A stretch of 10,528 bases of DNA, taken from IMG/VR virus record IMGVR_UViG_2565956629_000002, positions 1-10,528 of that record. One strand, 5' to 3'. Below the pieces are notes generated by a model that saw nothing but the letters and a program-made list of their open reading frames with translations, did not search any database and was not told the origin of the DNA. Position 1 is the stretch's first letter. Each line of letters begins with the position of its first letter. Source of the DNA: a virus. Its lineage: Duplodnaviria > Heunggongvirae > Uroviricota > Caudoviricetes. Positions 1 to 10,528 of the stretch are shown in pieces. Both the position numbers and the translations under genes were made by a program.

Positions 1-63
1 ATTGAGTGGGAATGATTAATAGCTAACTCATAGCAAATCATTTCTATTCAGACACTAACTCAA

Positions 64-94
64 CCCTCTGTTTTTACAGAGGGTTTTTGTTTTT
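64..94 (+). terminator. Rho-independent terminator of an upstream (off-window) plus-strand transcript
   Basis: Stem CCCTCTG (64-70), loop TTTTTA, stem CAGAGGG (77-83), followed by TTTTTGTTTTT. The reverse strand has no T-tract after the hairpin, so it looks unidirectional. Confidence 0.5.
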
Positions 95-143
95 ATGTAT
101 TCATTTCTATTCACTCTACACCATATTTTTCGGCGGTACAGGT

Positions 144-178
144 GACGGTATTACCTTAAAGGTATACTCTCATACCGT
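144..178. promoter_or_regulatory. Nested inverted repeats upstream of int, including an operator-like TTACC-N5-GGTAt site (151-165)
   Basis: GACGGTAT (144-151) and ATACCGTC (171-178) form a perfect 8-bp inverted repeat. Inside it, TTACCttaaaGGTAt matches the operator motif found in the immunity region with one mismatch. Sits about 30 bp upstream of the int start. Confidence 0.3.
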
Positions 179-207
179 CATGAAAATGGTTTCTATACGG
201 GTGAATT

Positions 208-1458
208 GTGCTTACCGATACAAAATTAAAAAACCTCAAGCCGCAGGACAAACTGTACAAGGTCTCCGATCGTGACGGGCTGTATGTAGCTGTGCTTACG
301 TCAGGCACGGTCTCGTTTCGCTACGACTACCGTATCAACGGTCGCCGCGAAACGCTGGTAATCGGGCAGTATGGGCGTGACGGTATCAGCCTGGCAGAAG
401 CGCGAGAAGAACTGATTGCTGCAAAGAAGCTGCTTAAAGCAGGCCAGTCACCGGCTGCGGCTAAACGTGACGGTATCAAAAAGATTCGTGGTGCCGAGAC
501 GTTTGCGGTACATACCGACAGTTATATGAAACACGTCATCCTGGCTGACAGTACCCGCGCAATGAAACAGGCGGTGATCGACCGTGACATACTTCCGGTT
601 CTTGGCAATAAAATGATGGCTGAAATTACCACATCGATGGTTCGTGATTTGTGTGACCGGATTGTCGAACGCGGTGGCCGGGCAACAGCAGTGCAGGCCA
701 GGGAGATCATCAGTAGCGTATACCGTCACGCCAATGACCGTGGTCATGGTTTGTTTAATCCTGCGGCTGACATTAAACCTTCGTCTATCGCCATATTTAA
801 ACCAAGAGAGCGAACACTGACACCAGAAGAAATTGGCCTGTTCTTCCGCACGCTGGATGCCATTGGTGCTATGGGCACTATGAAAATGGCTTTAAAGCTG
901 GTGCTTATCACTATGGTTCGTAAAGGCGAATTCACCAACGCAACGTGGGATGAAATAGATTTTAAAAAATGGACATGGACCATTCCTTCAGACCGCATGA
1001 AGGGAAGCCGGGCGCACGTTATTTACCTGCCTAAACAGGCTCAGGATATATTGGTCGGATTGCAGATGTGCGCTGGTGGAAGTGAATATCTGGTTCCTGG
1101 TCGTTACAATTTCCGGAAGCCATTATCTAATGCCGCGCTGAACTCTCTGATCGACAGAACGGTGAAAATAATAAATGAAGATGGTGAGCATATTCAGGGC
1201 TTCACCGTACACGATATGCGCCGTACAGCCAGTACATTGTTGCATGAGGCTGGTTATCCTTCAGACTGGATTGAAAAGGCTCTGGCACATGAGCAGAAAG
1301 GTGTGCGCGCCGTATATAACAAAGCGGAATACGCCAGACAGCGCGCCTACATGTTGCAGCAGTGGGCCGATATGATTGATTCCTGGATTGACGGGGAGCA
1401 TACGGATCTGATTCCGTTCTCCCCGTCGAAGTTTGAGAAGTGGATGGCGGGGGAATAA
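208..1458 (+). CDS. int: Tyrosine site-specific integrase (P4-like phage integrase family)
   Basis: 416-aa ORF with a GTG start at 208. N-terminus MLTDTKLKNLKP...DGLYV...FRYDYRINGRRE is typical of the P4-type integrase arm-binding domain. C-terminal catalytic signature includes HDMRRT (H-x-x-R) and VRAVYNKAEY (catalytic Tyr), plus the conserved WADMID tail. Confidence 0.93.
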   Translation: MLTDTKLKNLKPQDKLYKVSDRDGLYVAVLTSGTVSFRYDYRINGRRETLVIGQYGRDGISLAEAREELIAAKKLLKAGQSPAAAKRDGIKKIRGAETFAVHTDSYMKHVILADSTRAMKQAVIDRDILPVLGNKMMAEITTSMVRDLCDRIVERGGRATAVQAREIISSVYRHANDRGHGLFNPAADIKPSSIAIFKPRERTLTPEEIGLFFRTLDAIGAMGTMKMALKLVLITMVRKGEFTNATWDEIDFKKWTWTIPSDRMKGSRAHVIYLPKQAQDILVGLQMCAGGSEYLVPGRYNFRKPLSNAALNSLIDRTVKIINEDGEHIQGFTVHDMRRTASTLLHEAGYPSDWIEKALAHEQKGVRAVYNKAEYARQRAYMLQQWADMIDSWIDGEHTDLIPFSPSKFEKWMAGE

Positions 1459-1461
1459 CGT

Positions 1462-1656
1462 TTAATTATTCTGCTGATTTTCTTCCATCTCGGCTTCTGC
1501 TGCCAGTGATTCAATTTTATCTGTGAATATTGCTGACAGTGTTGCAAATTCAGCATCAGTGACAGCGGGAATTGGAACAAACCTGATCCCGCTGTGTGCA
1601 AGCATGTTTGCAGTTTCAAGGCATTTCCTTAAATCTGCTGGTGATGCCCTGTTCAT
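1462..1656 (-). CDS. Small hypothetical protein (64 aa) with acidic C-terminal tail, last gene of the cargo cassette
   Basis: ATG at 1656-1654 overlaps the methyltransferase stop (ATGA overlap). GGGAG lies 8 nt upstream. Protein MNRASPADLRKCLETANMLAHSG...AEAEMEENQQNN. The longer 104-aa track ORF (start 1776) would overlap the MTase out of frame and is disfavoured. Stop is 3 nt from the int stop. Confidence 0.4.
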   Translation of the reverse strand: MNRASPADLRKCLETANMLAHSGIRFVPIPAVTDAEFATLSAIFTDKIESLAAEAEMEENQQNN

Positions 1657-2300
1657 GCTGCACGCTCCCGCCCCTGGTTGTCTGTTGGTGACAGCGGAGC
1701 ATTGCTGAATGCATTTGTTAATCCGGCAATATACAACGCGTATCCAGGGTGTAGTTGCACTGCTGGGTCTTCGCACTGATTACCCCAAACATCGAAGCCA
1801 TGAGACGTTTGGCGGGCGAACAGTTCAATGCGAGAAACATCGCCTAACAATTGCACAAGTTTTTCACGAACGACATCTGGTTTTCTTGAATGCTCAAGCC
1901 GCGGTGCGGTAAATGACTGAACGATACCTGCATTAATGCGCGGAGGTAGTTTTCCCTTTACCGCAAACAGGCAATCTTCACTGTTGGCGCGAGTCATGTG
2001 TCCCATCCCCATAACCAGTTTATCTGGTTGTCGACTACCACATTTTATCCACGTGAAGCCCTTCATGGTCATCAGACGAAATCCCCAGGCTTCAACAACT
2101 TTTAGTGCTTCGAGTGGTTGTGTTGGCACCCACCACATGGCCAACAGACAGTTTTCATCGGCCAAATCCCACACAGGAAGGCGGCAGATATCCAGCACAC
2201 TCATAACCGGATATTTAAAACCGGCACCGCGATTACCATCTGCGGCTTTGTCCCGGTATACCCAGGGTGGATCTGCATAGATTAGCGTGTATTTTTTCAT
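1653..2300 (-). CDS. MT-A70 family N6-adenine DNA methyltransferase (215 aa)
   Basis: Start ATG at 2300 (internal Met of the track ORF) with GGGAG 7 nt upstream. MKKYTLIYADPPWVY carries the DPPW catalytic motif close to the N-terminus, as in MT-A70-type enzymes. ELFARQTSHGFDVWGNQ near the C-terminus is also typical. Start overlaps the stop of the upstream DndB-like gene (ATGA). Confidence 0.85.
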   Translation of the reverse strand: MKKYTLIYADPPWVYRDKAADGNRGAGFKYPVMSVLDICRLPVWDLADENCLLAMWWVPTQPLEALKVVEAWGFRLMTMKGFTWIKCGSRQPDKLVMGMGHMTRANSEDCLFAVKGKLPPRINAGIVQSFTAPRLEHSRKPDVVREKLVQLLGDVSRIELFARQTSHGFDVWGNQCEDPAVQLHPGYALYIAGLTNAFSNAPLSPTDNQGRERAA

Positions 2301-3364
2301 TGTTCTGCTCCCAGACTTCCTTTGGTAAAGGCTTGTATCAGCCTGTTTGCTGCCGCTTTCTGTGCTGCTACATTGGCAATAACTGATAGTTTTTCCTGGC
2401 TTGCTTTCGTGCAGATCCCAACCCAATTATCCATTAGGAAAAAATTCTCTCTTTCTGCGAAGTCAGTATTTGCACATAATGTTTCAATCATTGAAATTAT
2501 TTCTTTTATTGAGTGATTAACCATCATTTGCTGAACAGCATAGCCAAAAGCGTTAATCATCACTGCATGAAACTGGATATATTCTCTTTTGTATTCTGAT
2601 TGCTTTGTACCATGGCGAATTGCTTCTAGTTGTGTAAGACATAACCATGATTCCCATACTGACTCGATGTTACCAATTTCTAGTTTTTTCCCATTATGAA
2701 TACAAAATTTTGATGTTGAATCACTTAATGCTTTGAAACTCACCCACATGTTTGACTTTGACGGAACAACGTTGTGCTCGAAGTCAGTGACTTCTGCAAA
2801 AGTGTCATGTTGCGACAGGAAAGACACCATTTCTTGGGCAACATCGTTTCGTCCGTCATACGCCATATTAATTGCTGCAGATGGTTTTGAAACATTATTA
2901 TTAATGTCAGAAAAGAACTGCTGACGCGCCTTCAAAGGAAGGTTATGCGTAAGCATAAGAGGAATCATAATTGTTTCGCCATAATTACGGCAGAACTCAG
3001 CTAATCCTGCAGCACGATGCTGTCCATCAAATAATTTTATTTCTGCATCCATAGGAAATCTAGCTAAACCGACATTAGTATTTCCAATCTCATGGAACTC
3101 TATTTCTGAGTTACAATTTCCGACCAATGGTGGAACAATAAATGGTTCCTTTTTCTCGTAAGCGTTGACTAAATATTGATAAAACTTTTTTACCCTGGTT
3201 GGATTAATTTCACGTTGAGAACGTTCAAGGGTACTTCCCGTATTGTCGGTTGCCAATACTCTCGATAGTGCTCTTGCTGGTACTGTCATCATAAGTATTA
3301 CAGTGCTTCCCTGCGTTCCTCGTGATGCGGGAAATTCAAAGAAATAATCGCCTACCTTGCTCAT
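2297..3364 (-). CDS. DndB-like DGQHR-domain protein (ParB/Srx-fold, DNA-modification-associated family)
   Basis: Contains the name-giving motif LFDGQHRAAGL and an N-terminal YFFEFPASRGTQG segment as in DndB/DGQHR proteins. Start placed at ATG 3364 (MSKVGDYFF, AGG about 7 nt upstream). An in-frame ATG at 3400 would add 12 N/Q-rich residues and is the alternative. Gene is visibly more AT-rich than its neighbours. Confidence 0.82.
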   Translation of the reverse strand: MSKVGDYFFEFPASRGTQGSTVILMMTVPARALSRVLATDNTGSTLERSQREINPTRVKKFYQYLVNAYEKKEPFIVPPLVGNCNSEIEFHEIGNTNVGLARFPMDAEIKLFDGQHRAAGLAEFCRNYGETIMIPLMLTHNLPLKARQQFFSDINNNVSKPSAAINMAYDGRNDVAQEMVSFLSQHDTFAEVTDFEHNVVPSKSNMWVSFKALSDSTSKFCIHNGKKLEIGNIESVWESWLCLTQLEAIRHGTKQSEYKREYIQFHAVMINAFGYAVQQMMVNHSIKEIISMIETLCANTDFAERENFFLMDNWVGICTKASQEKLSVIANVAAQKAAANRLIQAFTKGSLGAEQ

Positions 3365-3392
3365 GATATTACCTTTTACATTATTGTTTTGA

Positions 3393-3692
3393 TTATTCAT
3401 AAACCACCCCGCAACATCCTATGCCGCTATAGTCGCCACGGCGAAGGCCGTTACCTTTTGTGATACATTGGTCCCTGCGAACCGCGATCCTTGCACGTTC
3501 AACATCACCAGAAGCAACATCCATACACTGAAGCCAAAGGTGAGCGGCAATGCGGAATTGCCCTTTTTTCTCTCTTTCAATCGCGCGTTTTTCGATCTCT
3601 ATCGCCGCAGGAGTAACGGCGACAATCTTTGACGGACTGCGCATTGAAACCTTATTCATGTGATATTTTTCAAGTCGGCTTAACTTTCTCAC
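3393..3692 (-). CDS. Hypothetical small protein, possible first gene of the cargo cassette
   Basis: Only long ORF on either strand in this 300-bp segment. GTG start at 3692 with GAGGG about 9 nt upstream; alternative internal ATG starts at 3659 and 3644. Stop TAA at 3393-3395 lies within the ATGAATAA context of the 3400 alternative start. No recognisable domain. Confidence 0.4.
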   Translation of the reverse strand: MRKLSRLEKYHMNKVSMRSPSKIVAVTPAAIEIEKRAIEREKKGQFRIAAHLWLQCMDVASGDVERARIAVRRDQCITKGNGLRRGDYSGIGCCGVVYE

Positions 3693-3801
3693 TTAATCCA
3701 ACCCTCTCTGAAAATTAATGCCAGCAGATAAAGCCATGCTGAAACAGAGGCCAGGAATAAGTACCATCCTGACCATTTGCTCCAGTGCCTTAGCAGCACA
3801 C

Positions 3802-4050
3802 TCATGCAGCGTTGCTCACAGGACGATATACACGTTGCTGAACAGGAGGCTTTTTACCCTGGAACTCTGCCGGGCTTGCTGCCTGACGTTCATCAAGCCA
3901 ACGCTCAACTTCGTCACGGTTCCATGCGCAGCGTTTGTCAGTGATATACCAGCGTTTAGGAAATTCACCTGCGCGCTCCATACGGTCGATAGTGCTCCAT
4001 GACAGTGGCACCACCGCCAGGAGTTCCTTCTTACCTAATGCACCTTTCAT
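3802..4050 (-). CDS. AlpA/Xis-family excisionase-like DNA-binding protein
   Basis: 82-aa protein with LLAVVPLSWSTIDRMERAGEFPKRWYITDKRCAWNRDEVERWL, the typical MerR-like winged-helix signature of AlpA-type prophage excisionases/regulators. RBS GAGAGGT 5-6 nt upstream of the ATG. Confidence 0.85.
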   Translation of the reverse strand: MKGALGKKELLAVVPLSWSTIDRMERAGEFPKRWYITDKRCAWNRDEVERWLDERQAASPAEFQGKKPPVQQRVYRPVSNAA

Positions 4051-4072
4051 AAATACCTCTCTTGGTTGCAGT

Positions 4073-4091
4073 GCGGCGCGCGTGGCGCCGC
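4073..4091. repeat. GC-rich perfect palindrome (7-bp stem, 5-nt loop) between recT and the excisionase gene
   Basis: GCGGCGC gcgtg GCGCCGC. No T-tract follows on either strand, so it is not a canonical intrinsic terminator. Confidence 0.4.
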
Positions 4092-4099
4092 GGTGGTGG

Positions 4100-5017
4100 T
4101 TACATAGATGTTTCGTTTAATTCTTCCCGACGAACGCTGTAAACGTCGGTGGCTTTTGCCAGCAGTTCGTCATCATCTGAAAGTTTTTGTGCAATGTATT
4201 TGTAAGCCTTATCCAGTTCGGAGACAGTGCTGTAATTCATCGCTGCGCTGGTAAAGGCCATCAGCATTTCTTCTGGATCACGGCTATCCGCTTTACGCGT
4301 TTGCTCATCAGGCTTTTTCACTGTTTTAGCGTTGATCAGACTGTTCATGCTGGATGCTGTGCCGTGCTTTGCCTGACTTCTTGGAGTTACGTCACGTTCA
4401 ATAATGTCAGGTGAGTCGATATATTTACCTTCCATTTCCTCAGCTGTGGCTTGTTGACCAATCTCCGGCCATGCTTTACGTAATGCCTGTGCCTCTGCGC
4501 ATTTTGCCAACTGCGCATAAGGGCGCTTTTTCCACATGGCATTTGGTGCCGATGTGTCACGCCCCCCAGTTGCATAGTTCTCAATCCAGTATTCTTTGGC
4601 GCTAAACTCTACGATTTCCCCGCTTGCCATTCGCTTGCTGACGGTGTACTTACACCACTGAGGGAAGGTAACCTCCACGCCTGAAAGCGTTTGTGTTACA
4701 TCTGGACCGAACTCAGGTTCATTAGCGCCTGCGTAATCGCCGGAACGGTAGGCCTGAATGCGATAAAGTCCAATGCCAGGCATGACCACGTCGCGCCATT
4801 CATTCTTTCCACTCTTCGAGTCTTTAACACTCATTGGTACCAGGTGTACCGGCTTAAGAAGAGGATCGAGTTGACGCGCCCGGCAGTAATCGACTGCCAT
4901 CATTACCGATTCATCTTTTGCCCCAGGGTAAATACTGTTTTTCAGAGCGCTCCATGTAACTTCATCGATTCCCCGAATAGCCAACACATCATTGGTGATT
5001 GCAATTTCGTTGCTCAT
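4100..5017 (-). CDS. recT: RecT-family single-strand annealing recombinase
   Basis: Start ATG at 5017 (internal Met of the track ORF; AGGA 9 nt upstream) overlapping the exonuclease stop (ATGA). A GTG at 5044 is the alternative. SKSGKNEWRDVVMPGIGLYRIQAYRSGDYAG resembles the conserved RecT core as recalled from Rac RecT. Confidence 0.88.
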   Translation of the reverse strand: MSNEIAITNDVLAIRGIDEVTWSALKNSIYPGAKDESVMMAVDYCRARQLDPLLKPVHLVPMSVKDSKSGKNEWRDVVMPGIGLYRIQAYRSGDYAGANEPEFGPDVTQTLSGVEVTFPQWCKYTVSKRMASGEIVEFSAKEYWIENYATGGRDTSAPNAMWKKRPYAQLAKCAEAQALRKAWPEIGQQATAEEMEGKYIDSPDIIERDVTPRSQAKHGTASSMNSLINAKTVKKPDEQTRKADSRDPEEMLMAFTSAAMNYSTVSELDKAYKYIAQKLSDDDELLAKATDVYSVRREELNETSM

Positions 5018-5835
5018 ACGTACATATCCTGTTTGCGTGCCCACTCAGGGCGTTTAATAATTTCCACGCCGCCCCATTCATCGCTGATGCGGCATTCGTG
5101 ATAGGTATTCAGATCCCGGCGGAACAGAGCGTGCCCGGCATCGACATCCGGCGCATCCAGCCCGAACACGCGTACCGGATACCGACCACAATCAATGCTT
5201 TCGCTCACGGCAAGAAAGAAAAAACCATGCGGCTGACCAGTAATCCTCATTGCGCCTTCGCGGTACATTGCGTCCTGCACGTGGTAGCGGAATTCCTCGA
5301 TGTGACGTGCAAAACGGTCCATATCTGCAACCTTTTTCACGTCGACGATCACGTTGTGCTCGTTCAGCCATTTGTCTGGACGAATTCGGCACAACTCACC
5401 CGTCTCTTCATCGTTCCAGTACATTGATGCTTCGCAGTAACCAGGTGCTTCCAGCATCCAGCGTGCCGCCGGGTGAGCCATTGCGCTATCACGCATCAGC
5501 TCCAGTTTCCGCCACTGCTCGGCATCAAGTACCGTAATCCCCATATCCGCTACATCACGAAGAAATGCTTCTTCGTCAGCTTTACCTTGTTTCGTCCGAC
5601 GATCGAACTTCGGTGAAACAATGAAGCGTTTGTCGAATTCTCCAGGCTCCAGAAGCAGACAGTGCAATGCGGTTCCCATATCCAGTGCAGACTTTTTCTC
5701 TTCGTCTTCTGGTGCTGCCTGAACCCATTTAAGAAGCGCCGGATTCTTGGCAACCATGTCCAGTTGCGACTTACTCACGCCGTCACCGGCGTGGTAGTCT
5801 TCGTTGCTGATGTCGAAATAAATTCCCGGTTTCAT
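5014..5835 (-). CDS. RecE-like PD-(D/E)XK exonuclease (exodeoxyribonuclease VIII-like), partner of RecT
   Basis: 273-aa ORF immediately upstream of and translationally coupled to RecT. Sequence features recall the C-terminal nuclease domain of prophage RecE-type exonucleases. ATG at 5835 overlaps the upstream gene stop (ATGA). Confidence 0.8.
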   Translation of the reverse strand: MKPGIYFDISNEDYHAGDGVSKSQLDMVAKNPALLKWVQAAPEDEEKKSALDMGTALHCLLLEPGEFDKRFIVSPKFDRRTKQGKADEEAFLRDVADMGITVLDAEQWRKLELMRDSAMAHPAARWMLEAPGYCEASMYWNDEETGELCRIRPDKWLNEHNVIVDVKKVADMDRFARHIEEFRYHVQDAMYREGAMRITGQPHGFFFLAVSESIDCGRYPVRVFGLDAPDVDAGHALFRRDLNTYHECRISDEWGGVEIIKRPEWARKQDMYV

Positions 5836-6131
5836 GCCGCTTCCCTCTGCCCATCAAGCTGATCCGCCAGATCCCAGCGCGCTATAATTGCCATTGCCTC
5901 GCGCCGGTAGGAATCCATCAGTTCTTCGAACTCAGGGCTGTCTTTAGCAGCCTCCAGCACTTCCTGACGAACGCCTTTGCCTGTTACAACGTCGAAAGTT
6001 GAGGACAGTTGATGAAGTCGGATGCTCTCAATCAGTTCAACTTGTCGGTCATATAGCTGTTCTGACAGGCGGTAGTCCTTGTCGAATGCCAGCATGATTT
6101 TTTGAAGATTTTTCTGCTGATTAACGTTCAT
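5832..6131 (-). CDS. Hypothetical early-left-operon protein (99 aa)
   Basis: Start ATG at 6131 with strong GGAGG 7 nt upstream (an ATG at 6146 is less likely). Stop overlaps the exonuclease start. No recognised domain; occupies a position analogous to gam/abc-type genes in lambdoid phages. Confidence 0.7.
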   Translation of the reverse strand: MNVNQQKNLQKIMLAFDKDYRLSEQLYDRQVELIESIRLHQLSSTFDVVTGKGVRQEVLEAAKDSPEFEELMDSYRREAMAIIARWDLADQLDGQREAA

Positions 6132-6133
6132 TA

Positions 6134-6286
6134 TCAGCCCTCCCATATCTCGTTATCGTTGGCCACATCGCGAGCTTCTTTGCTGACGAAAGCCCACTTA
6201 ATGCCTTCCTGTAAGGTGCGGAACTTCCAGCTCATGAATCCGCATGCAGTAACGCAGTACCAACCGTTGATGATTTTCCACTGCAT
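6134..6286 (-). CDS. Small W/C-rich hypothetical protein (50 aa), first gene after the pL-like promoter
   Basis: Not in the supplied track (under 60 aa). ATG at 6286 with GAGGT 8 nt upstream. Hand translation: MQWKIINGWYCVTACGFMSWKFRTLQEGIKWAFVSKEARDVANDNEIWEG. Stop TGA at 6134-6136 is followed after 2 nt by the next gene's ATG. Confidence 0.5.
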   Translation of the reverse strand: MQWKIINGWYCVTACGFMSWKFRTLQEGIKWAFVSKEARDVANDNEIWEG

Positions 6287-6305
6287 AACTTGTTACCTCG
6301 GTCTG

Positions 6306-6382
6306 TTACCGTTGAGGTAATAATTATGCGTATTTGGTTTGATGTCAATAGATATGAGTTAAAAAAATTACCCATAAGGTAA
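6306..6382. promoter_or_regulatory. OL-like operator pair: two perfect TTACC-N5-GGTAA palindromes flanking the pL-like promoter
   Basis: TTACCgttgaGGTAA (6306-6320) and TTACCcataaGGTAA (6368-6382), 62 bp centre to centre. Confidence 0.6.
6320..6348 (-). promoter_or_regulatory. pL-like early leftward promoter
   Basis: On the minus strand: TTGACA (complement of 6343-6348), 17-nt spacer, AATTAT abutting the 6306-6320 operator. The second operator lies 19 bp upstream of the -35. Confidence 0.45.
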
Positions 6383-6393
6383 TCTTGTTGGCA

Positions 6394-6418
6394 ATAAAAA
6401 AGCCGCCATGAGGCGGCT
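6394..6418 (-). terminator. Rho-independent terminator downstream of the repressor gene
   Basis: Stem AGCCGCC (6401-6407), loop ATGA, stem GGCGGCT (6412-6418). On the minus strand the hairpin is followed by TTTTTTAT (plus-strand A-tract 6394-6400). Confidence 0.65.
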
Positions 6419-6439
6419 TACTTACTGAAAACTATAGTT

Positions 6440-7024
6440 TTATTGTTTGCTTCTTTCGTTCTGGCTGATGACAAATTCAATGTAACTTTCGATCTTTGCC
6501 TTCTCTGTTTCGGGTAACAATGCGTAGCGCGAGCGGTCATAGTTGATAGTCGCAGGGTCGTGCGGGTGAATCAGTAATTCATAGCCGTGACGCCCGAATG
6601 CGGATGCAACATTCTCCAGGGTGGAAATGGAAACGCTGACTTCATTGTTTAACAGGCGGCTGATTGTCACCTGGGCGACGCCGGATGCGCGGTGTAGTTT
6701 TCCCTGCGTTGAAAGGTCGCGGCTTTCGCTCATCCAGCGTTCCAGGTTGTGAGCCGCCAGCTGACCAATGTCGCTTGGGCCGACAGGCTGAAACCCCTCC
6801 TGAGAAAGCGAGCGATCGATATCAAGCCAGTTACGGGGTTTATTGGCGGCAGCTTCAATTTTTCGCGCAACCTGGTCGCCGATAACCTTCTTGCCAAGAG
6901 CCCAGCGGTTTACCAGATTTGCCTGAGTTCCAAGTTTTTCTGCCATCCGCGTCTGAACACCATTGAATTCACGGTCGATCAAGTCGTTGAGATTTTGCCT
7001 GCGGACGTCCTGGATACTTTTCAT
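6440..7024 (-). CDS. Prophage repressor-like protein with two HTH domains and no S24 peptidase domain
   Basis: 194 aa, transcribed divergently from the cro-like gene across an operator-rich region. Two HTH-like segments (QTRMAEKLGTQANLVNRWALGKK and LHRASGVAQVTISRLLNNEVSVS). No LexA-type Ala-Gly cleavage site or Ser/Lys peptidase module recognisable. Confidence 0.8.
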   Translation of the reverse strand: MKSIQDVRRQNLNDLIDREFNGVQTRMAEKLGTQANLVNRWALGKKVIGDQVARKIEAAANKPRNWLDIDRSLSQEGFQPVGPSDIGQLAAHNLERWMSESRDLSTQGKLHRASGVAQVTISRLLNNEVSVSISTLENVASAFGRHGYELLIHPHDPATINYDRSRYALLPETEKAKIESYIEFVISQNERSKQ

Positions 7025-7079
7025 TTTCTGGAAAATCGCCTCATATATGAATCAGTAGATGATTCAATTTAAAGCAATA

Positions 7080-7142
7080 TTACCCAACAGGTAAATGCAC
7101 CTCATAGGTAACTATCCTTGATTTTTGTTACCTTATGGGTGA
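7080..7142. promoter_or_regulatory. OR-like operator cluster between the repressor and cro-like genes
   Basis: TTACCcaacaGGTAA (7080-7094, perfect), gcACCtcataGGTAA (7097-7111, degenerate), TTACCttatgGGTgA (7128-7142, one mismatch). Confidence 0.6.
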
Positions 7143-7153
7143 ATATTTATTAT
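7125..7153 (+). promoter_or_regulatory. pR-like promoter for the cro-like gene
   Basis: TTGTTA (7125-7130), 17-nt spacer, TATTAT (7148-7153). The 7128-7142 operator overlaps the -35 and spacer. Confidence 0.35.
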
Positions 7154-7178
7154 CTGAAATAAATATCAGGCAATAGCT

Positions 7179-7409
7179 ATGAGCGATAACGGACATTTCG
7201 ATTTCAAAAAGCACTGGCTTGCACTTACTCCGGATGAGCGTGAAGCCTTCGCACAGGAAGCCGGAACGACGAGTCACTATATCCAGACTCACTTAACAGG
7301 TAAGCGCAAAATGCCAGGTAAAGTATTGATGAATGGGCTTTTTAAAGCCTGTAAAACAAGACAATGGCTGCGCTCAAAAGCAGAACTGGCATACTTCTTC
7401 TACTCATGA
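7179..7409 (+). CDS. Cro-like small HTH regulator (76 aa)
   Basis: Divergent from the repressor, immediately right of the OR-like operators. HTH-like segment REAFAQEAGTTSHYIQTHLTGKRKM. Followed by a terminator. Confidence 0.75.
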   Translation: MSDNGHFDFKKHWLALTPDEREAFAQEAGTTSHYIQTHLTGKRKMPGKVLMNGLFKACKTRQWLRSKAELAYFFYS

Positions 7410-7431
7410 TATCCAGCTACAACCCTCTGTA

Positions 7432-7453
7432 GACCGCCACCCGGCGGTCTTTT
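7432..7453 (+). terminator. tR1-like rho-independent terminator after the cro-like gene
   Basis: Stem GACCGCC (7432-7438), loop ACCC, stem GGCGGTC (7443-7449), then TTTT (short T-tract). Confidence 0.5.
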
Positions 7454-7557
7454 CATATCTATTCGTACCTCAAAGGTAATAAAAAACCAAATCTGGTTGA
7501 TCAAATTTTCCAATTGTGCAAAATATCCAATATCAATAACAAAAAGAGGCGGAAAAA

Positions 7558-7770
7558 TTGAAGATAGTAACCAGAATGGAGGCCGCAAAAGCCGGGTTAA
7601 ATCGCTATTTCACAGGAAAGCGGTGCCGTCACGGCCATCTCTCTGAAAGGTATGTTCTGAACGGAACATGTGTTGAATGTGCAATGAATAGCGCCAACCG
7701 CCATCGTAATGAATTTGCTTGTGCACTAAAGAGTGCAAGAGGGGAAACCTATGGCAAGCAGCTGGATTAA
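7558..7770 (+). CDS. Small zinc-finger-like protein at the CII position
   Basis: KRCRHGHLSERYVLNGTCVECA has a Cys/His cluster (C-x-H-x-H ... C-x-x-C). TTG start at 7558 with GAGG 8 nt upstream; the first ATG is at 7576 without an obvious SD. 3' end overlaps the next gene. Confidence 0.6.
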   Translation: MKIVTRMEAAKAGLNRYFTGKRCRHGHLSERYVLNGTCVECAMNSANRHRNEFACALKSARGETYGKQLD

Positions 7771-8575
7771 GGTTGAAGTTATCACTCCTGATAAACCTGA
7801 AATTTTTCAGATAGCAGAAATTCTGGGTATTGATCCAGATGCTGTTCTTGGAAAGCTGGTTCGTATATGGGCATGGGCTGACCAGCAAACAATAGACGGT
7901 AACGCTGGCAGCGTTACAAAAGGAGTACTTGATAGACTCGCTTTTATTACAGGATTTGCTGACGCCCTCATTAGCGTCGGATGGCTTGCTTATCATGACG
8001 GCAAACTAATTCTTCCAAACTTTGAGCGACACAATGGAGAATCATCGAAAAAACGTGCACTTACGAATAGAAGAGTGGCAGAGCATCGAAAACGAGTAAC
8101 GCAAAAAGTAACGCCAACAGCGTTACAAAAGGAGTTACCAGAGGAAGAGGAAGATATATATAAAACCCCACACATAGCGCACGTGCGCGAGGGTGCTCCG
8201 ACCAGTGAAGCGAACGGTATGCCGTTGCAGGTGGCTGAACCTGAATTTCTGGATGGCCTGAGTGAACCCATCGGGAAATTTCCGATGACCGATGGCTGGC
8301 ATCCGTCGCCGGATTTTCGACGGCGTGCTGCGCTGTGGGGAACGGCCCTGCCGGAACCGGAATTTACACCTGCTGAACTTGCTGCATTCCGGGATTACTG
8401 GATGGCTGAGGGCAAAGTGTTCACGCAGGTTCAGTGGGAACAAAAATTCGCCAGGCACGTAAATCATATCAGGGGAAAATCAAAAAACGCCGGGAAAAGC
8501 GATGAGCTTGACTGGAATAACACTGACTGGATAGAAGGGGTGTGGGATGAAATCAACTCCAGAACTTCTCAATGA
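7751..8575 (+). CDS. Replication initiator (O-analogue; DUF1376/YdaU-like N-terminus with DnaT-like C-terminus)
   Basis: ATG at 7751 with GAGGGG 8 nt upstream. N-terminus MASSWIKVEV...LGKLVRIWAWADQQ and C-terminus PMTDGWHPSPDF...FRDYWMAEGK recall the prophage replication-initiation family found upstream of P/DnaC-like loaders. Contains internal iteron-like repeats. Confidence 0.75.
   Translation: MASSWIKVEVITPDKPEIFQIAEILGIDPDAVLGKLVRIWAWADQQTIDGNAGSVTKGVLDRLAFITGFADALISVGWLAYHDGKLILPNFERHNGESSKKRALTNRRVAEHRKRVTQKVTPTALQKELPEEEEDIYKTPHIAHVREGAPTSEANGMPLQVAEPEFLDGLSEPIGKFPMTDGWHPSPDFRRRAALWGTALPEPEFTPAELAAFRDYWMAEGKVFTQVQWEQKFARHVNHIRGKSKNAGKSDELDWNNTDWIEGVWDEINSRTSQ
8096..8168. repeat. Iteron-like repeats plus AT-rich tract inside the initiator gene: candidate replication origin
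   Basis: GTAACGC at 8096-8102 and 8108-8114, inverted GCGTTAC at 8120-8126, at a 12-bp period. Followed by GAGGAAGAGGAAG and the AT-rich tract GATATATATAAAA (8156-8168). A similar GTAACGC-N5-GCGTTAC palindrome sits at 7907-7925. Confidence 0.4.
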
Positions 8576-9323
8576 GTACGATCGCTTACGTGAGCATGGT
8601 GTTGCTGTGCATGAAGAGCGGCGTGACAGCAATGGCAAAAAGGAGCATGTCGCTAGAATTTTCAATGAACTATTTGTCCAGTTACAGGCTGCATTTCCCG
8701 CAAGCGTTTCGACCATAAGGGAGCAGAACAAACTTAATGAATTCCGTAAGCAATGGATGCTTGCGTTTCTGGAGAATGGGATCACTACAATGGAACAGGT
8801 TAACGCTGGTATGCGCCACGCCCGCGCCAGTGAGTCTCCGTTCTGGCCGTCGCCAGGGCAATTCATCAAGTGGTGTAAAGACAGCAAGATGGTTCTTGGC
8901 GTCACCATTGACGATGTGATGGCAGAGTTTCACCGGTACAGCAAGGAAAAAAGTTTATATCCTGGTGGTCCCGAAAGATTCCCGTGGCGGCACCCGGTTA
9001 TGTACTGGGTCGTATGTGATACCCGCCGTGCAATGTATCAGCGCCAGCTTAGCGAGATTGAGGTTGAGAAACACGCGCGCAGGCTGCTCGATGATTGGGC
9101 GAAAAAGGTGGCTTCAGGACAGCAGATACCCGATCCGGTGATCAGCATACAGGCAAAGCCAGAACCCATGAGTACGCCTCCGGACACAGGGAGAGACGTT
9201 TACCATCCACCAGGGCGAAGTTTCGGGTGCATGCCTAACGCCGCCACCCTTGGGGGAATAACACCGGCGCAGTGGCTGATGGAGGAATACAGGCGGGGAA
9301 AGGCGGCAGGATTTATCAAGTAA
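8547..9323 (+). CDS. Lambda P-like replication protein (DnaB helicase loader)
   Basis: The stretch QLQAAFPAS...EQNKLNEFRKQWMLAFLENGITTMEQVNAGMRHARAS...PFWPSPGQFIKWC closely parallels the conserved core of lambda P as recalled (FPAS, QW.LAF.ENGITTMEQVNAGMR, PSPGQF..WC). Confidence 0.88.
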   Translation: MKSTPELLNEYDRLREHGVAVHEERRDSNGKKEHVARIFNELFVQLQAAFPASVSTIREQNKLNEFRKQWMLAFLENGITTMEQVNAGMRHARASESPFWPSPGQFIKWCKDSKMVLGVTIDDVMAEFHRYSKEKSLYPGGPERFPWRHPVMYWVVCDTRRAMYQRQLSEIEVEKHARRLLDDWAKKVASGQQIPDPVISIQAKPEPMSTPPDTGRDVYHPPGRSFGCMPNAATLGGITPAQWLMEEYRRGKAAGFIK

Positions 9324-9360
9324 TACCAGCGCGATAGCGCATTTTTTTACGTCTCGATAA

Positions 9361-9437
9361 TTACCTGTGAGGTAATAAAATATTCTAAACTCTATTGATT
9401 TCGTGTCTTATGTGGTTTTTAATTACCTCAGGGGTAA
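9361..9437. promoter_or_regulatory. Third operator pair (O3) flanking a promoter downstream of the replication genes
   Basis: TTACCtgtgaGGTAA (9361-9375) and TTACCtcaggGGTAA (9423-9437), both perfect, 62 bp centre to centre: the same spacing as the OL pair. Confidence 0.55.
9395..9423 (+). promoter_or_regulatory. Candidate repressor-controlled rightward promoter (P3)
   Basis: TTGATT (9395-9400), 17-nt spacer, TTTAAT (9418-9423) abutting the downstream operator. The upstream operator ends 19 bp before the -35, the same geometry as the pL-like promoter. Confidence 0.45.
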
Positions 9438-9440
9438 ATT

Positions 9441-9785
9441 ATGAGAAAACAGATACAGGCTCTTGGTCGACTCAAAACAGGCCAGATGAACAAAACAGAA
9501 TCTGCGTATTGCCAGCACCTTGAGCTGCGTAAACGTGCAGGGGAAATCGCCTGGTATCGATTTGAGGGTATCAAGCTGCGATTAGCTGACAACACGTTCT
9601 ATACGCCCGATTTTGCTGTGATGCTCGCCACCGGCGAGATGGAACTGCACGAAGTGAAAGGTTTCTGGACCGACGACGCCAGGGTGAAAACCAAAGTCGC
9701 CGCAGATCAGTATCCGTTCCGAATCATCGGGGTAACGGTTAAACCAAAGAAAGCAGGTGGTGGCTGGAACATCGAAGAGTTCTGA
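9441..9785 (+). CDS. DUF1064-like phage protein (possible PD-(D/E)XK-type nuclease fold)
   Basis: 114-aa ORF with GGGG about 8 nt upstream. YTPDFAV...EMELHEVKG resembles a D...E.K nuclease-type motif. Family name is from recollection, not a search. Confidence 0.75.
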   Translation: MRKQIQALGRLKTGQMNKTESAYCQHLELRKRAGEIAWYRFEGIKLRLADNTFYTPDFAVMLATGEMELHEVKGFWTDDARVKTKVAADQYPFRIIGVTVKPKKAGGGWNIEEF

Positions 9786-9846
9786 ATCGACGATCTTTTT
9801 AGTTATCAATGTAATCAATAAGTTATGTGGATAAGCGAGGGTAAAG

Positions 9847-10284
9847 ATGGAAAGTAATATCAAAGGGTTAGTTGCCGCCGGGCATGAGATGGCTTCGGAA
9901 CTGAAAGCAGAATGTGGTGCCGTTGATATGCGCAGTGTGGCAAAGCTGATCAGCTATTTGGCAACGCAACTGGAAGTGCAACTGGTGCGTGCTAATGCGC
10001 TGGCTGCGGAGAATGCGCTGGCTCGTAAAGCAGTTCAGGCATTTTGCGATGTTGTTGGCGACAGCACCGAGGTTATCTGCGAGGAGATTGGGCGAGATGG
10101 CGTTCTGGTTATTTTGGAGGCAATGAAGGCAACAGGAAATATGCCAGCCACCGATGCTTTCCTGTCTGAAGTGCGGGCGCAGGGGGTAGAGATGATGCGC
10201 GAACATCCATCAATCAAACTTTGTTCTTTGACGCACATATGTGATGAGTTAGCCGCCCAGCTTCGCAAAGGAGGCAGCCAGTGA
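9847..10284 (+). CDS. Hypothetical phage protein (145 aa)
   Basis: Clean ORF with GAGGGTAAAG RBS 5' of the ATG. Alanine-rich, helical-looking. Stop overlaps the next gene's GTG start (GTGA). Confidence 0.7.
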   Translation: MESNIKGLVAAGHEMASELKAECGAVDMRSVAKLISYLATQLEVQLVRANALAAENALARKAVQAFCDVVGDSTEVICEEIGRDGVLVILEAMKATGNMPATDAFLSEVRAQGVEMMREHPSIKLCSLTHICDELAAQLRKGGSQ

Positions 10285-10528
10285 GCGAAATTAATTACCA
10301 GGCATTGCGTGAGGCGGCAGAGAAAGCAACGTGGGGAGACTGGGACTCATATAAACCACACCGTGGCGCACGTGGTTATGAGGTCCGACTAAGTAGTCAG
10401 GCCATTGCGCAACACGTTCTGAAAAACAACGCTGAATTTATTGCTGCCTTTAATCCAAAGGTTGCTTTGGCACTACTGGATGAACGGGAAAAAAACCAGC
10501 AATACATCAAACTCCGCGACCAGGAGAA
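10281..10528 (+). CDS. Ea22-like family protein, 5' partial (continues beyond window end)
   Basis: GTG start at 10281 with GGAGG 6 nt upstream. Hand translation VSEINYQALREAAEKATWGDWD...ALALLDEREKNQQYIKLRDQE matches the N-terminal signature of enterobacterial prophage Ea22-like proteins as recalled. No stop codon before the window ends. Confidence 0.6.
   Translation, partial: MSEINYQALREAAEKATWGDWDSYKPHRGARGYEVRLSSQAIAQHVLKNNAEFIAAFNPKVALALLDEREKNQQYIKLRDQE

Follow-up and report, generated by a model that had tools for sequence, protein, structure and literature searches.

A gene encoding a DndB-like protein with a DGQHR motif, followed directly by the gene of an MT-A70 adenine methyltransferase, lies between the integrase and AlpA-type excisionase genes of a 10,528-nucleotide (nt) stretch of tailed-phage DNA (Caudoviricetes; positions 1 to 10,528 of IMG/VR record IMGVR_UViG_2565956629_000002, here called the window). 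Its gene content and sequence mark it as the early-left arm of a phiV10/epsilon15-type (Uetakevirus-like) Escherichia coli prophage, and four minus-strand genes occupy the interval in the order PerC, DndB-like, MT-A70 methyltransferase and DUF1382. The adjacency of DndB-like and methyltransferase genes is real and recurrent, is not due to chance, and is far from obligatory. Our favoured reading, still a tentative one, is that the DndB-like gene and the methyltransferase following it constitute a facultative module of temperate phages, serving early-lytic, methylation-linked counter-restriction in which the DndB-like protein would act on DNA. The general principle has been described before; the pairing itself is apparently undescribed, as a first-pass annotation of the window had suspected, and full-text literature searches aimed at it found no paper on such a pair.

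A methyltransferase recurs downstream of the DndB-like gene

Homologous contexts were surveyed in a genomic sample of 21 genome loci and about 160 viral loci, with genes found by tblastn and an open reading frame (ORF) walk and neighbours typed with Pfam. The DndB-like proteins were grouped at 95% identity, giving 35 enterobacterial clusters that are taken here as lineages, and were placed on a neighbour-joining tree. A methyltransferase was counted as adjacent when encoded on the same strand at most 700 nt downstream of the DndB-like gene, and this applies to 15 of the 35 clusters. The first three homologue contexts, from E. coli (73% identical), Klebsiella (67%) and Salmonella (63%), had no adjacent methyltransferase and agreed with a chance moron insertion unrelated to that gene; the closest homologues and the systematic survey overturned this explanation. 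Among these closest homologues (76-78% identical), the gene order is PerC, DUF1317, DndB-like, Dam (PF05869) and integrase in Salmonella, and PerC, DUF1317, DndB-like, MT-A70, small ORF and integrase in Klebsiella. A lambda-like Cronobacter prophage has RecT, a small ORF, the DndB-like gene and a second MT-A70 lineage, the two MT-A70 lineages being about 42% identical.

In the enterobacterial clade the methyltransferase starts at one of two positions, either in the interval from -3 to +6 nt relative to the end of the DndB-like stop codon or, following a single helix-turn-helix (HTH) gene of 154-179 codons, at +464 to +523 nt. The partner enzymes fall into two MT-A70 groups (a and b), Dam (PF05869), N6_N4 (PF01555, then a C5 enzyme of PF00145) and D12 (PF02086). 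They represent five Pfam families; marine-phage relatives are linked to others, C5 among them, and at least six methyltransferase families are known as partners in all. One 95% identity DndB-like cluster by itself carries three methyltransferase families, and clusters with and without a methyltransferase are interleaved on the tree. A family-independent motif screen for (D/N/S)PP(Y/F/W/H), covering 402 kb in 36 representative loci, gave 17 matches in the slot downstream of the DndB-like gene; elsewhere it returned one homology-confirmed methyltransferase gene and a few short, mostly antisense matches. No methyltransferase was found within 1.8 kb upstream of the DndB-like gene in the enterobacterial clade.

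The intervening HTH gene, c3, encodes a multi-HTH protein of phrog_323 ('transcriptional regulator, D5-like'; for example in survey loci L017, L018, L043, L053, L055 and L058). It starts about 2 nt after the DndB-like gene and reaches to about +460; the window has no c3. In the 18 IMG/VR loci in which c3 was examined, it is followed by a methyltransferase in 18 of 18 cases (Dam in nine, N6_N4 plus C5 in four, MT-A70 in five) and preceded by a DndB-like gene in 18 of 18, one of these a remnant. The remnant (L133, 3777-3992; about 72 residues, 43% identical) stands before intact HTH, N6_N4 and C5 genes, an arrangement suggestive of a DndB-like gene that decayed while its neighbours were kept.

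Cultured phages also carry the gene, among them Salmonella phages SPN1S, SPN9TCW and SPC32H/N; the annotated order in SPN1S is PerC, DUF1317, DGQHR, methyltransferase, a hypothetical gene and integrase. The linkage is seen again at only about 30-35% identity, in relatives from Vibrio and other marine phages. Vibrio phage Va_PF430-3_p42 has a 34% identical relative with a C5 methylase, a small ORF and the integrase next in order, and for other relatives from marine phages a Dam or a small S-adenosylmethionine-dependent methyltransferase lies two or three genes downstream. These regularities bear on a rival explanation in which the two genes share a location and no partnership, the DndB-like gene being an independent accessory gene, with an anti-defence or DNA-metabolism function of its own, that tends to land in the anti-restriction or accessory slot of early operons, where orphan methyltransferases also sit, and the adjacency reflecting island organisation and recombination at gene boundaries. 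Such an account is doubtful, and still a serious contender (its supporting evidence is given below). It is at odds with the fixed order and immediate adjacency for five methyltransferase families of the enterobacterial clade and the absence of a methyltransferase from the 1.8 kb upstream, with the constant order of DndB-like, HTH and methyltransferase genes at all c3 loci while the enzyme family changes, with the renewed linkage in distant relatives, and with independent alleles of very different G+C content (GC) in the same slot.

The DndB-like gene lies at a junction in a phiV10 backbone

The backbone order in this lineage is excisionase, a 38-residue membrane protein, PerC, MT-A70 methyltransferase and DUF1382. 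The trio of PerC, methyltransferase and DUF1382, lacking a DndB-like gene, is found in phiV10, 16 further phage records and about 520 of the 542 matching E. coli genome records, and in such records the window query matches as two pieces with 42-51% coverage. Alignment of the two forms gives the phiV10 junction as ...GGTTT ATGACTAAGAAATACAC... and that of the window as ...GGTTT ATGAATAAT...(1.1 kb)...ACAATGAAAAAATACAC..., a clean junction that puts the DndB-like gene precisely at the PerC/methyltransferase boundary. On this sequence evidence PerC, the methyltransferase and DUF1382 belong to the phiV10 backbone and the four genes are not one unit. The first-pass annotation had proposed a four-gene cassette and a search for the same quartet elsewhere; the DndB-like/methyltransferase pair does recur, and the quartet does not hold together.

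The same annotation had judged the DndB-like gene to be horizontally acquired, and its composition agrees with this. Its GC is 0.38 compared with about 0.50 for the methyltransferase and flanks, while its homologues in prophages of Klebsiella, Salmonella, Citrobacter and others have a GC of 0.45-0.56, near that of their surroundings. The AT-rich window allele fills the same slot as these GC-adapted alleles of other Uetakevirus-like prophages, and a donor of lower GC is its probable source. No other allele found exceeds 78% identity to it; its neighbours, the PerC and methyltransferase genes, share 97-99% identity with their phiV10 counterparts. Near-identical flanks around a divergent allele imply a recent presence/absence polymorphism in this lineage. 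The ratio of nonsynonymous to synonymous substitution rates of the DndB-like gene is 0.08 against the single comparator with unsaturated synonymous sites (these are saturated in all others), a value indicative of purifying selection.

The DndB-like protein has a predicted ParB/Srx-type fold

The DndB-like protein scores 192 bits against TIGR03187 (cut-off 58.85 bits) and 110 bits against the DndB equivalog model TIGR03233 (cut-off 328 bits), and is about 24% identical to genuine DndB, including a Salmonella DndB. The latter value led us to reject the possibility that it mimics host DndB and represses the host dnd operon. Neither the ORFs of the window nor the 42 kb annotated in RefSeq for an identical prophage include a dndA/C/D/E, iscS or restriction endonuclease gene; no dnd genes were present in any related locus inspected, and no TGT-family gene in the window or related loci. 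The earlier conclusion that the locus is neither a Dnd phosphorothioation system nor a classical restriction-modification (R-M) system is thus upheld.

A structure model of the protein has an N-terminal ParB/Srx nucleoside triphosphatase fold and a helical C-terminal domain, and resembles DpdB. Its matches include PadC (with nearly the same Z score as for DpdB), pNOB8-type ParB, Atu1540 and sulfiredoxin, all of them also among the top matches published for DpdB (PMC10164549); the C-terminal half gave no convincing match. The first-pass annotation had reported no recognisable ATPase at the locus, a statement that overlooks the fold predicted for the DndB-like protein itself. The DGQHR motif is intact in 49 of 51 cluster representatives, the other two having an R to K and an H to T substitution, and its arginine is part of a candidate nucleotide-binding motif of the ParB/Srx domain. 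One bacterial DndB-like protein is known to bind ATP and GTP (PMC12704722).

The family is small, with 259 members scoring E <= 1e-10 among 1.84 billion cluster representatives, and its PHROGs entry is listed as of unknown function. No solved structure matched the protein by sequence, and neither a DUF1524/HNH nor any other nuclease domain was detectable in it. All 236 homologues of the first search are single-domain proteins. One longer relative (P0352, 591 residues) has the DndB domain fused to the mismatch-binding MutS domain I, which hints that family members may couple to DNA-structure recognition.

A second motif raises the question of an effector function. An R-x5-H motif of the C-terminal half (KREYIQFH, residues 271-278; consensus KR(D/E)YIQFH) is kept in the enterobacterial clade and fits a published claim of a HEPN domain in DndB (PMC3632139); no HEPN fold matched the model. 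The motif could form a HEPN-like RNase site in an R-M-type defence of the lysogen, with the methyltransferase marking self and the DndB-like protein as effector or sensor directed at unmarked DNA, comparable to the sensors SspE and DndI or the GmrSD and BrxU enzymes. This proposal draws on DGQHR/DUF262 superfamily relatives that are modification-sensing effectors (PMC11662687, PMC3632139), on the recognition of both proteins singly by PADLOC, and on a place next to the integrase, typical of lysogenic-conversion genes. We consider it quite unlikely. The motif histidine is lost in the Vibrio clade, and near-identical DndB-like proteins stand beside different methyltransferase families, a C5 enzyme in the Vibrio phage included, so that an effector could not read one specific mark. 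Forms lacking a methyltransferase and forms lacking the DndB-like gene are both common; the former should not be tolerated by a self-targeting effector that has no protection. The lysogen-protecting function raised as an alternative in the first-pass annotation therefore fits poorly, all the more given the expression context described below.

A solitary MT-A70 methyltransferase in an early-left operon

The methyltransferase matches PF05063 with 78.9 bits (cut-off 23.9 bits) over profile positions 1-172 of 172. PADLOC assigns it to MTase_II (PDLC03262, E 2e-76) and the DndB-like protein to DndB. Its relatives in the PDB are ciliate MT-A70 proteins and METTL3 (E about 1e-13), and it is 97-98% identical to the phiV10 methylase. 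No characterised close homologue or named specificity was found among 1178 relatives. Identity with the non-specific prophage enzyme M.EcoGII was considered and rejected: the literature describes that enzyme as class beta, but nothing ties it to the 215-residue MT-A70 protein. No cognate endonuclease lies beside the gene, the neighbours being DndB-like, DUF1382, PerC and integrase.

Every gene from the excisionase through DUF1382 overlaps its neighbour or nearly does so. Consensus scans, on which all promoter and terminator calls rest, found no sigma-70-like site on either strand in 1300-4200 (none against 4.8 expected) and no credible internal terminator in that interval. A predicted promoter at 6348-6320, immediately beyond the terminator-like hairpin behind the repressor gene, fits the phiV10 annotation and likely drives the whole leftward operon as far as DUF1382. 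These features point to expression of the pair together with the early-left recombination genes after induction or infection and not in the resting lysogen; for a lysogen defence, the want of a promoter-like site before the pair and its embedding in the tail of the early-left operon are both unfavourable.

The operon structure also bears on whether the DndB-like protein might be a pure transcriptional governor, which would do no more than repress or time the methyltransferase gene, as an analogue of a C protein, and so avoid over-methylation. DndB acts as an ATP-modulated autorepressor of dndBCDE (PMC4507180; Xia et al. 2019, as relayed in PMC10164549), over-methylation by non-specific prophage methyltransferases has been reported as lethal (PMC7736820), many loci have an extra HTH regulator gene between the two genes, and for a regulator working from upstream it would not matter to which family the methyltransferase belongs. 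We nevertheless regard this role as highly improbable. There is no intergenic space, promoter-like site or operator-like repeat near the pair, which would be read through from far upstream; forms without a methyltransferase leave nothing to regulate; and the identity to genuine DndB is low.

Lineages and observations that weigh against partnership

A series of observations counts against the favoured reading of a functional module and in part supports mere co-location. Twenty of the 35 enterobacterial clusters have no adjacent methyltransferase, and in nine of these 20 a ParB-HTH gene lies upstream. This gene (PF17762) is found one or two genes upstream in loci L006-L008, L010, L020, L074, L077, L118, L253, L282, L283, L288 and L301, and a ParB-HTH gene upstream and a methyltransferase downstream never occur together in the sample. 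Other neighbours of the methyltransferase-less forms are Ea22-like genes, HNH genes and dATP/dGTP pyrophosphohydrolase genes with or without a Lar domain; a Salmonella relative is located two genes upstream of a protein that joins dATP/dGTP pyrophosphohydrolase and Lar restriction-alleviation domains. From the side of the enzyme, the methyltransferase is mostly found alone: about 96% of the phiV10-type genes have no DndB-like gene beside them, one being present in only 21 of the 542 matching E. coli genome records and in five of the 80 best IMG/VR methyltransferase loci, and neither gene needs the other.

Gene order and spacing are likewise less telling than they may appear. In Pseudoalteromonas phage KB12-38 a C5 methylase is encoded 0.66 kb upstream of the DndB-like gene, and the order of DndB-like gene, then methyltransferase, holds in the enterobacterial clade and is not universal. 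The tight junctions noted in the first-pass annotation are no evidence of partnership, since overlaps are general for the gene pairs in the operon; the overlap of PerC and methyltransferase in phiV10 shows that unrelated operon genes are coupled in this way. No DndB/methyltransferase fusion occurs among ten long relatives tested, and repeats near the genes are at chance level, with no operator-, parS- or binding-site-like repeats.

The contexts of distant or common forms extend this picture. In a Buttiauxella metagenome-assembled genome (L029 4750-9484; similar in L030-L032), a 438-residue, 37% identical relative lies between ArdA and PsiA in an island of the plasmid leading-region type, which reads DUF1281, ArdA, DndB-like and PsiA, with a KlcA-type antirestriction gene further on. 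The DndB-like gene here takes the place usual for psiB in plasmid leading regions, and no methyltransferase was detected in the examined stretch around it; this setting on a conjugative element is a further point in favour of co-location. The antirestriction genes around it, like the Lar domain in the Salmonella context, also count in favour of a counter-restriction module. Early-entry regions of this kind are known to combine anti-restriction genes with ParB homologues and orphan methyltransferases (PMC11541004, PMC7736820).

Two further contexts were noted. The allele most often seen in E. coli (73% identical; its cluster holds 585 sequences) is found in the order Gam, DUF1317, DndB-like, DksA/TraR-type zinc finger, next to RexAB; its loci (L003-L005, L019, L078-L108) are without a methyltransferase and some are without a called integrase, indicating that the DndB-like gene persists in apparently degraded lambdoid prophages. 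In KB12-38 (L121 435-5053) the DndB-like gene is flanked by annotated 3'-phosphoadenosine-5'-phosphosulfate (PAPS) reductase and 'sulfate reductase' genes, and this phage may carry another set of DNA-modification genes grouped around a protein of this type.

A possible mechanism and its wider form

Recurrent linkage to a methyltransferase favours the view, put forward in the first-pass annotation, of a phage epigenetic mark with the DndB-like protein as partner. In our favoured reading, the early-left promoter would drive production of the module soon after induction or infection. The methyltransferase would write a mark on phage DNA, N6-methyladenine in the case of the window, and the DndB-like protein would bind DNA as a nucleoside triphosphate (NTP)-gated switch or clamp by means of its ParB/Srx domain and the DGQHR arginine. 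Once bound, it would either promote or control the methylation of phage DNA during replication, and the module would thereby help the phage genome to escape host restriction. Because the partner can come from any of at least six unrelated families, including C5 enzymes, coupling most plausibly runs through the DNA substrate and not through a specific protein contact or mark. A model in which the DndB-like protein reads N6-methyladenine was set aside on account of the C5 methylase paired with the Vibrio phage relative.

A broader variant, which we rate as somewhat unlikely, makes the DndB-like protein a family-agnostic promoter of methylation: an NTP-gated ParB-type clamp that eases the action of any methyltransferase, the phage's or the host's, on the DNA of mobile elements. 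The clamp would load on incoming or replicating DNA and make it a better or faster substrate for the phage's own orphan enzyme or, in lineages where none follows and on conjugative elements, for the modification enzymes of the host, which would by analogy amount to a Ral/Lar-like restriction alleviation by a ParB-superfamily switch. It would explain the swappable families, the persistence of methyltransferase-less forms, and the relatives beside ArdA, KlcA-type, PsiA and Lar-domain genes.

Few counter-restriction tools of phages and plasmids are as common as orphan methyltransferases, which are usually treated as solitary. If the favoured reading is true, a DndB-like NTP switch adds a layer of control or targeting to phage epigenetic self-protection, and the emerging view of ParB-fold switches widens far beyond chromosome segregation. 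The pair would offer a tractable two-gene model in E. coli and Salmonella (SPN1S and SPC32H are cultured) for the action of the DndB/DGQHR branch of the ParB superfamily on DNA. Such modules may also affect phage host range and the design of restriction-evading phages for therapy or engineering.

Layout of the window

The region is identical to a guaA-adjoining prophage of E. coli APEC E19035 and of several other avian and human isolates, and its features are collected in Table 1. The four co-oriented ORFs reported in the first-pass annotation, with their coordinates, both motifs and both ATGA overlaps, were all confirmed, the motifs not being misreads: the FDGQHR motif of the DndB-like protein is encoded at nt 3031-3014, DPPW of the methyltransferase at nt 2273-2262 (residues 10-13), and the ATGA stop/start overlaps lie at 2297-2300 and 1653-1656. 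The DndB-like protein likely starts at the ATG at 3364 (355 residues), in preference to that at 3400, because homologues, the PHROG profile and RefSeq all begin there. A 38-residue membrane ORF, absent from the earlier annotation, overlaps the excisionase stop with its start and the PerC GTG start with its stop, which supports the 99-residue GTG-initiated form of PerC over the 83-residue ATG-initiated form of RefSeq. DUF1382 is 98% identical to phiV10 protein PhiV10p32. Upstream in the operon, RecT (4100-5044) and a PD-(D/E)XK exonuclease (5014-5835) are encoded on the minus strand by separate, overlapping genes, and phiV10 has one annotated 1.76-kb RecE/RecT fusion gene at this place (5542-7302 of locus L001).

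Table 1 Features of the window around the DndB-like/methyltransferase pair
Feature	Coordinates	Strand	Basis and remarks
P4-type tyrosine integrase	208-1458	+	PF13356, PF22022, PF00589; convergent with operon; prophage integrated beside guaA (RefSeq context)
DUF1382, small acidic-tailed protein, 64 residues, ends ...EAEMEENQQNN	1462-1656	-	PF07131 E 1.4e-30
Stand-alone MT-A70 (class beta) adenine methyltransferase, 215 residues	1653-2300	-	PF05063 E 5.7e-22; phrog_359 'DNA methyltransferase'
DndB-like/DGQHR protein, 367 residues from ATG at 3400	2297-3400	-	PF14072 E 3.5e-46; TIGR03187 E 1.2e-56
PerC-family small transcriptional activator, 99 residues, GTG start	3393-3692	-	PF06069 E 6e-7; phrog_868 E 1.6e-61
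Membrane ORF, 38 residues (MSVLLRHWSKWSGWYLFLASVSAWLYLLALIFREGWIK), hydrophobic core, homologue of phiV10p35	3689-3805	-	Translation; phiV10 annotation
AlpA-type excisionase/regulator, upstream neighbour in same operon	3802-4050	-	PF05930 E 3.1e-5
Candidate early-left promoter, TTGACA-17-AATTAT	6320-6348	-	Consensus match; nearest upstream, sole good minus-strand match
Strong terminator-like hairpin	6400-6419	-	Directly after repressor gene (6440-7024)

Comparison with known systems

The DndB-like protein shares with DndB of dndBCDE the PF14072 family, the DGQHR motif, a ParB-superfamily fold and a position as first gene before DNA-modification genes, which DndB controls in an ATP-modulated manner (PMC4507180), a behaviour that we count as a likeness. 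It differs from DndB in its identity and equivalog score, as given above, and in having no dndC/D/E or dndA/iscS gene nearby. The Dnd partner is a sulfur-insertion complex in a chromosomal defence island, whereas that of the window protein is a methyltransferase in a phage early operon. DpdB is a ParB-fold ATPase whose ATP hydrolysis is needed for insertion of preQ0 into DNA by DpdA (PMC10164549). It has DGQQR in place of DGQHR, and its partner is a TGT-family base-exchange enzyme that requires this hydrolysis, whereas methyltransferases need no NTP; Dpd is furthermore a large cellular restriction-modification-like island.

DUF262-type sensors (SspE, DndI, GmrSD and BrxU) differ from the window protein, which has no DUF1524/HNH nuclease domain, is encoded in a probably lytic phage operon and is paired with the writer of a mark rather than with a separate modification operon. 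Orphan methyltransferases, such as the phiV10 methylase, phage T1-type Dam (PF05869), M.EcoGII and M.EcoGIX, resemble the window enzyme as stand-alone proteins of mobile elements without a cognate endonuclease, and the class is thought to shield incoming or replicating DNA from host restriction. Most of them, however, act alone, and published descriptions hold no recurrent DndB-like upstream partner.

Fusions of a ParB fold to a methyltransferase are enriched in prophages (PMC12704722), and ParB-terminase-methyltransferase loci have been described in phages (PMC4738411). Both resemble the window pair in combining a ParB-superfamily domain with N6/N4 or other methyltransferases, and an anti-defence role or phage DNA modification has been proposed for them (PMC12704722, PMC4738411, PMC5512222). 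The window pair differs from them in that its genes are separate with an ATGA overlap, the DndB/DGQHR protein is not of the ParBc family, the methyltransferase family is freely exchanged, and the locus adjoins the integrase in an early operon and not the terminase. By analogy, the module may be regarded as a split DGQHR-family variant of a common theme, a ParB-superfamily NTPase working with a DNA-modifying enzyme, of which DndB with DndCDE, DpdB with DpdA, and the ParB-methyltransferase fusions would be further members.

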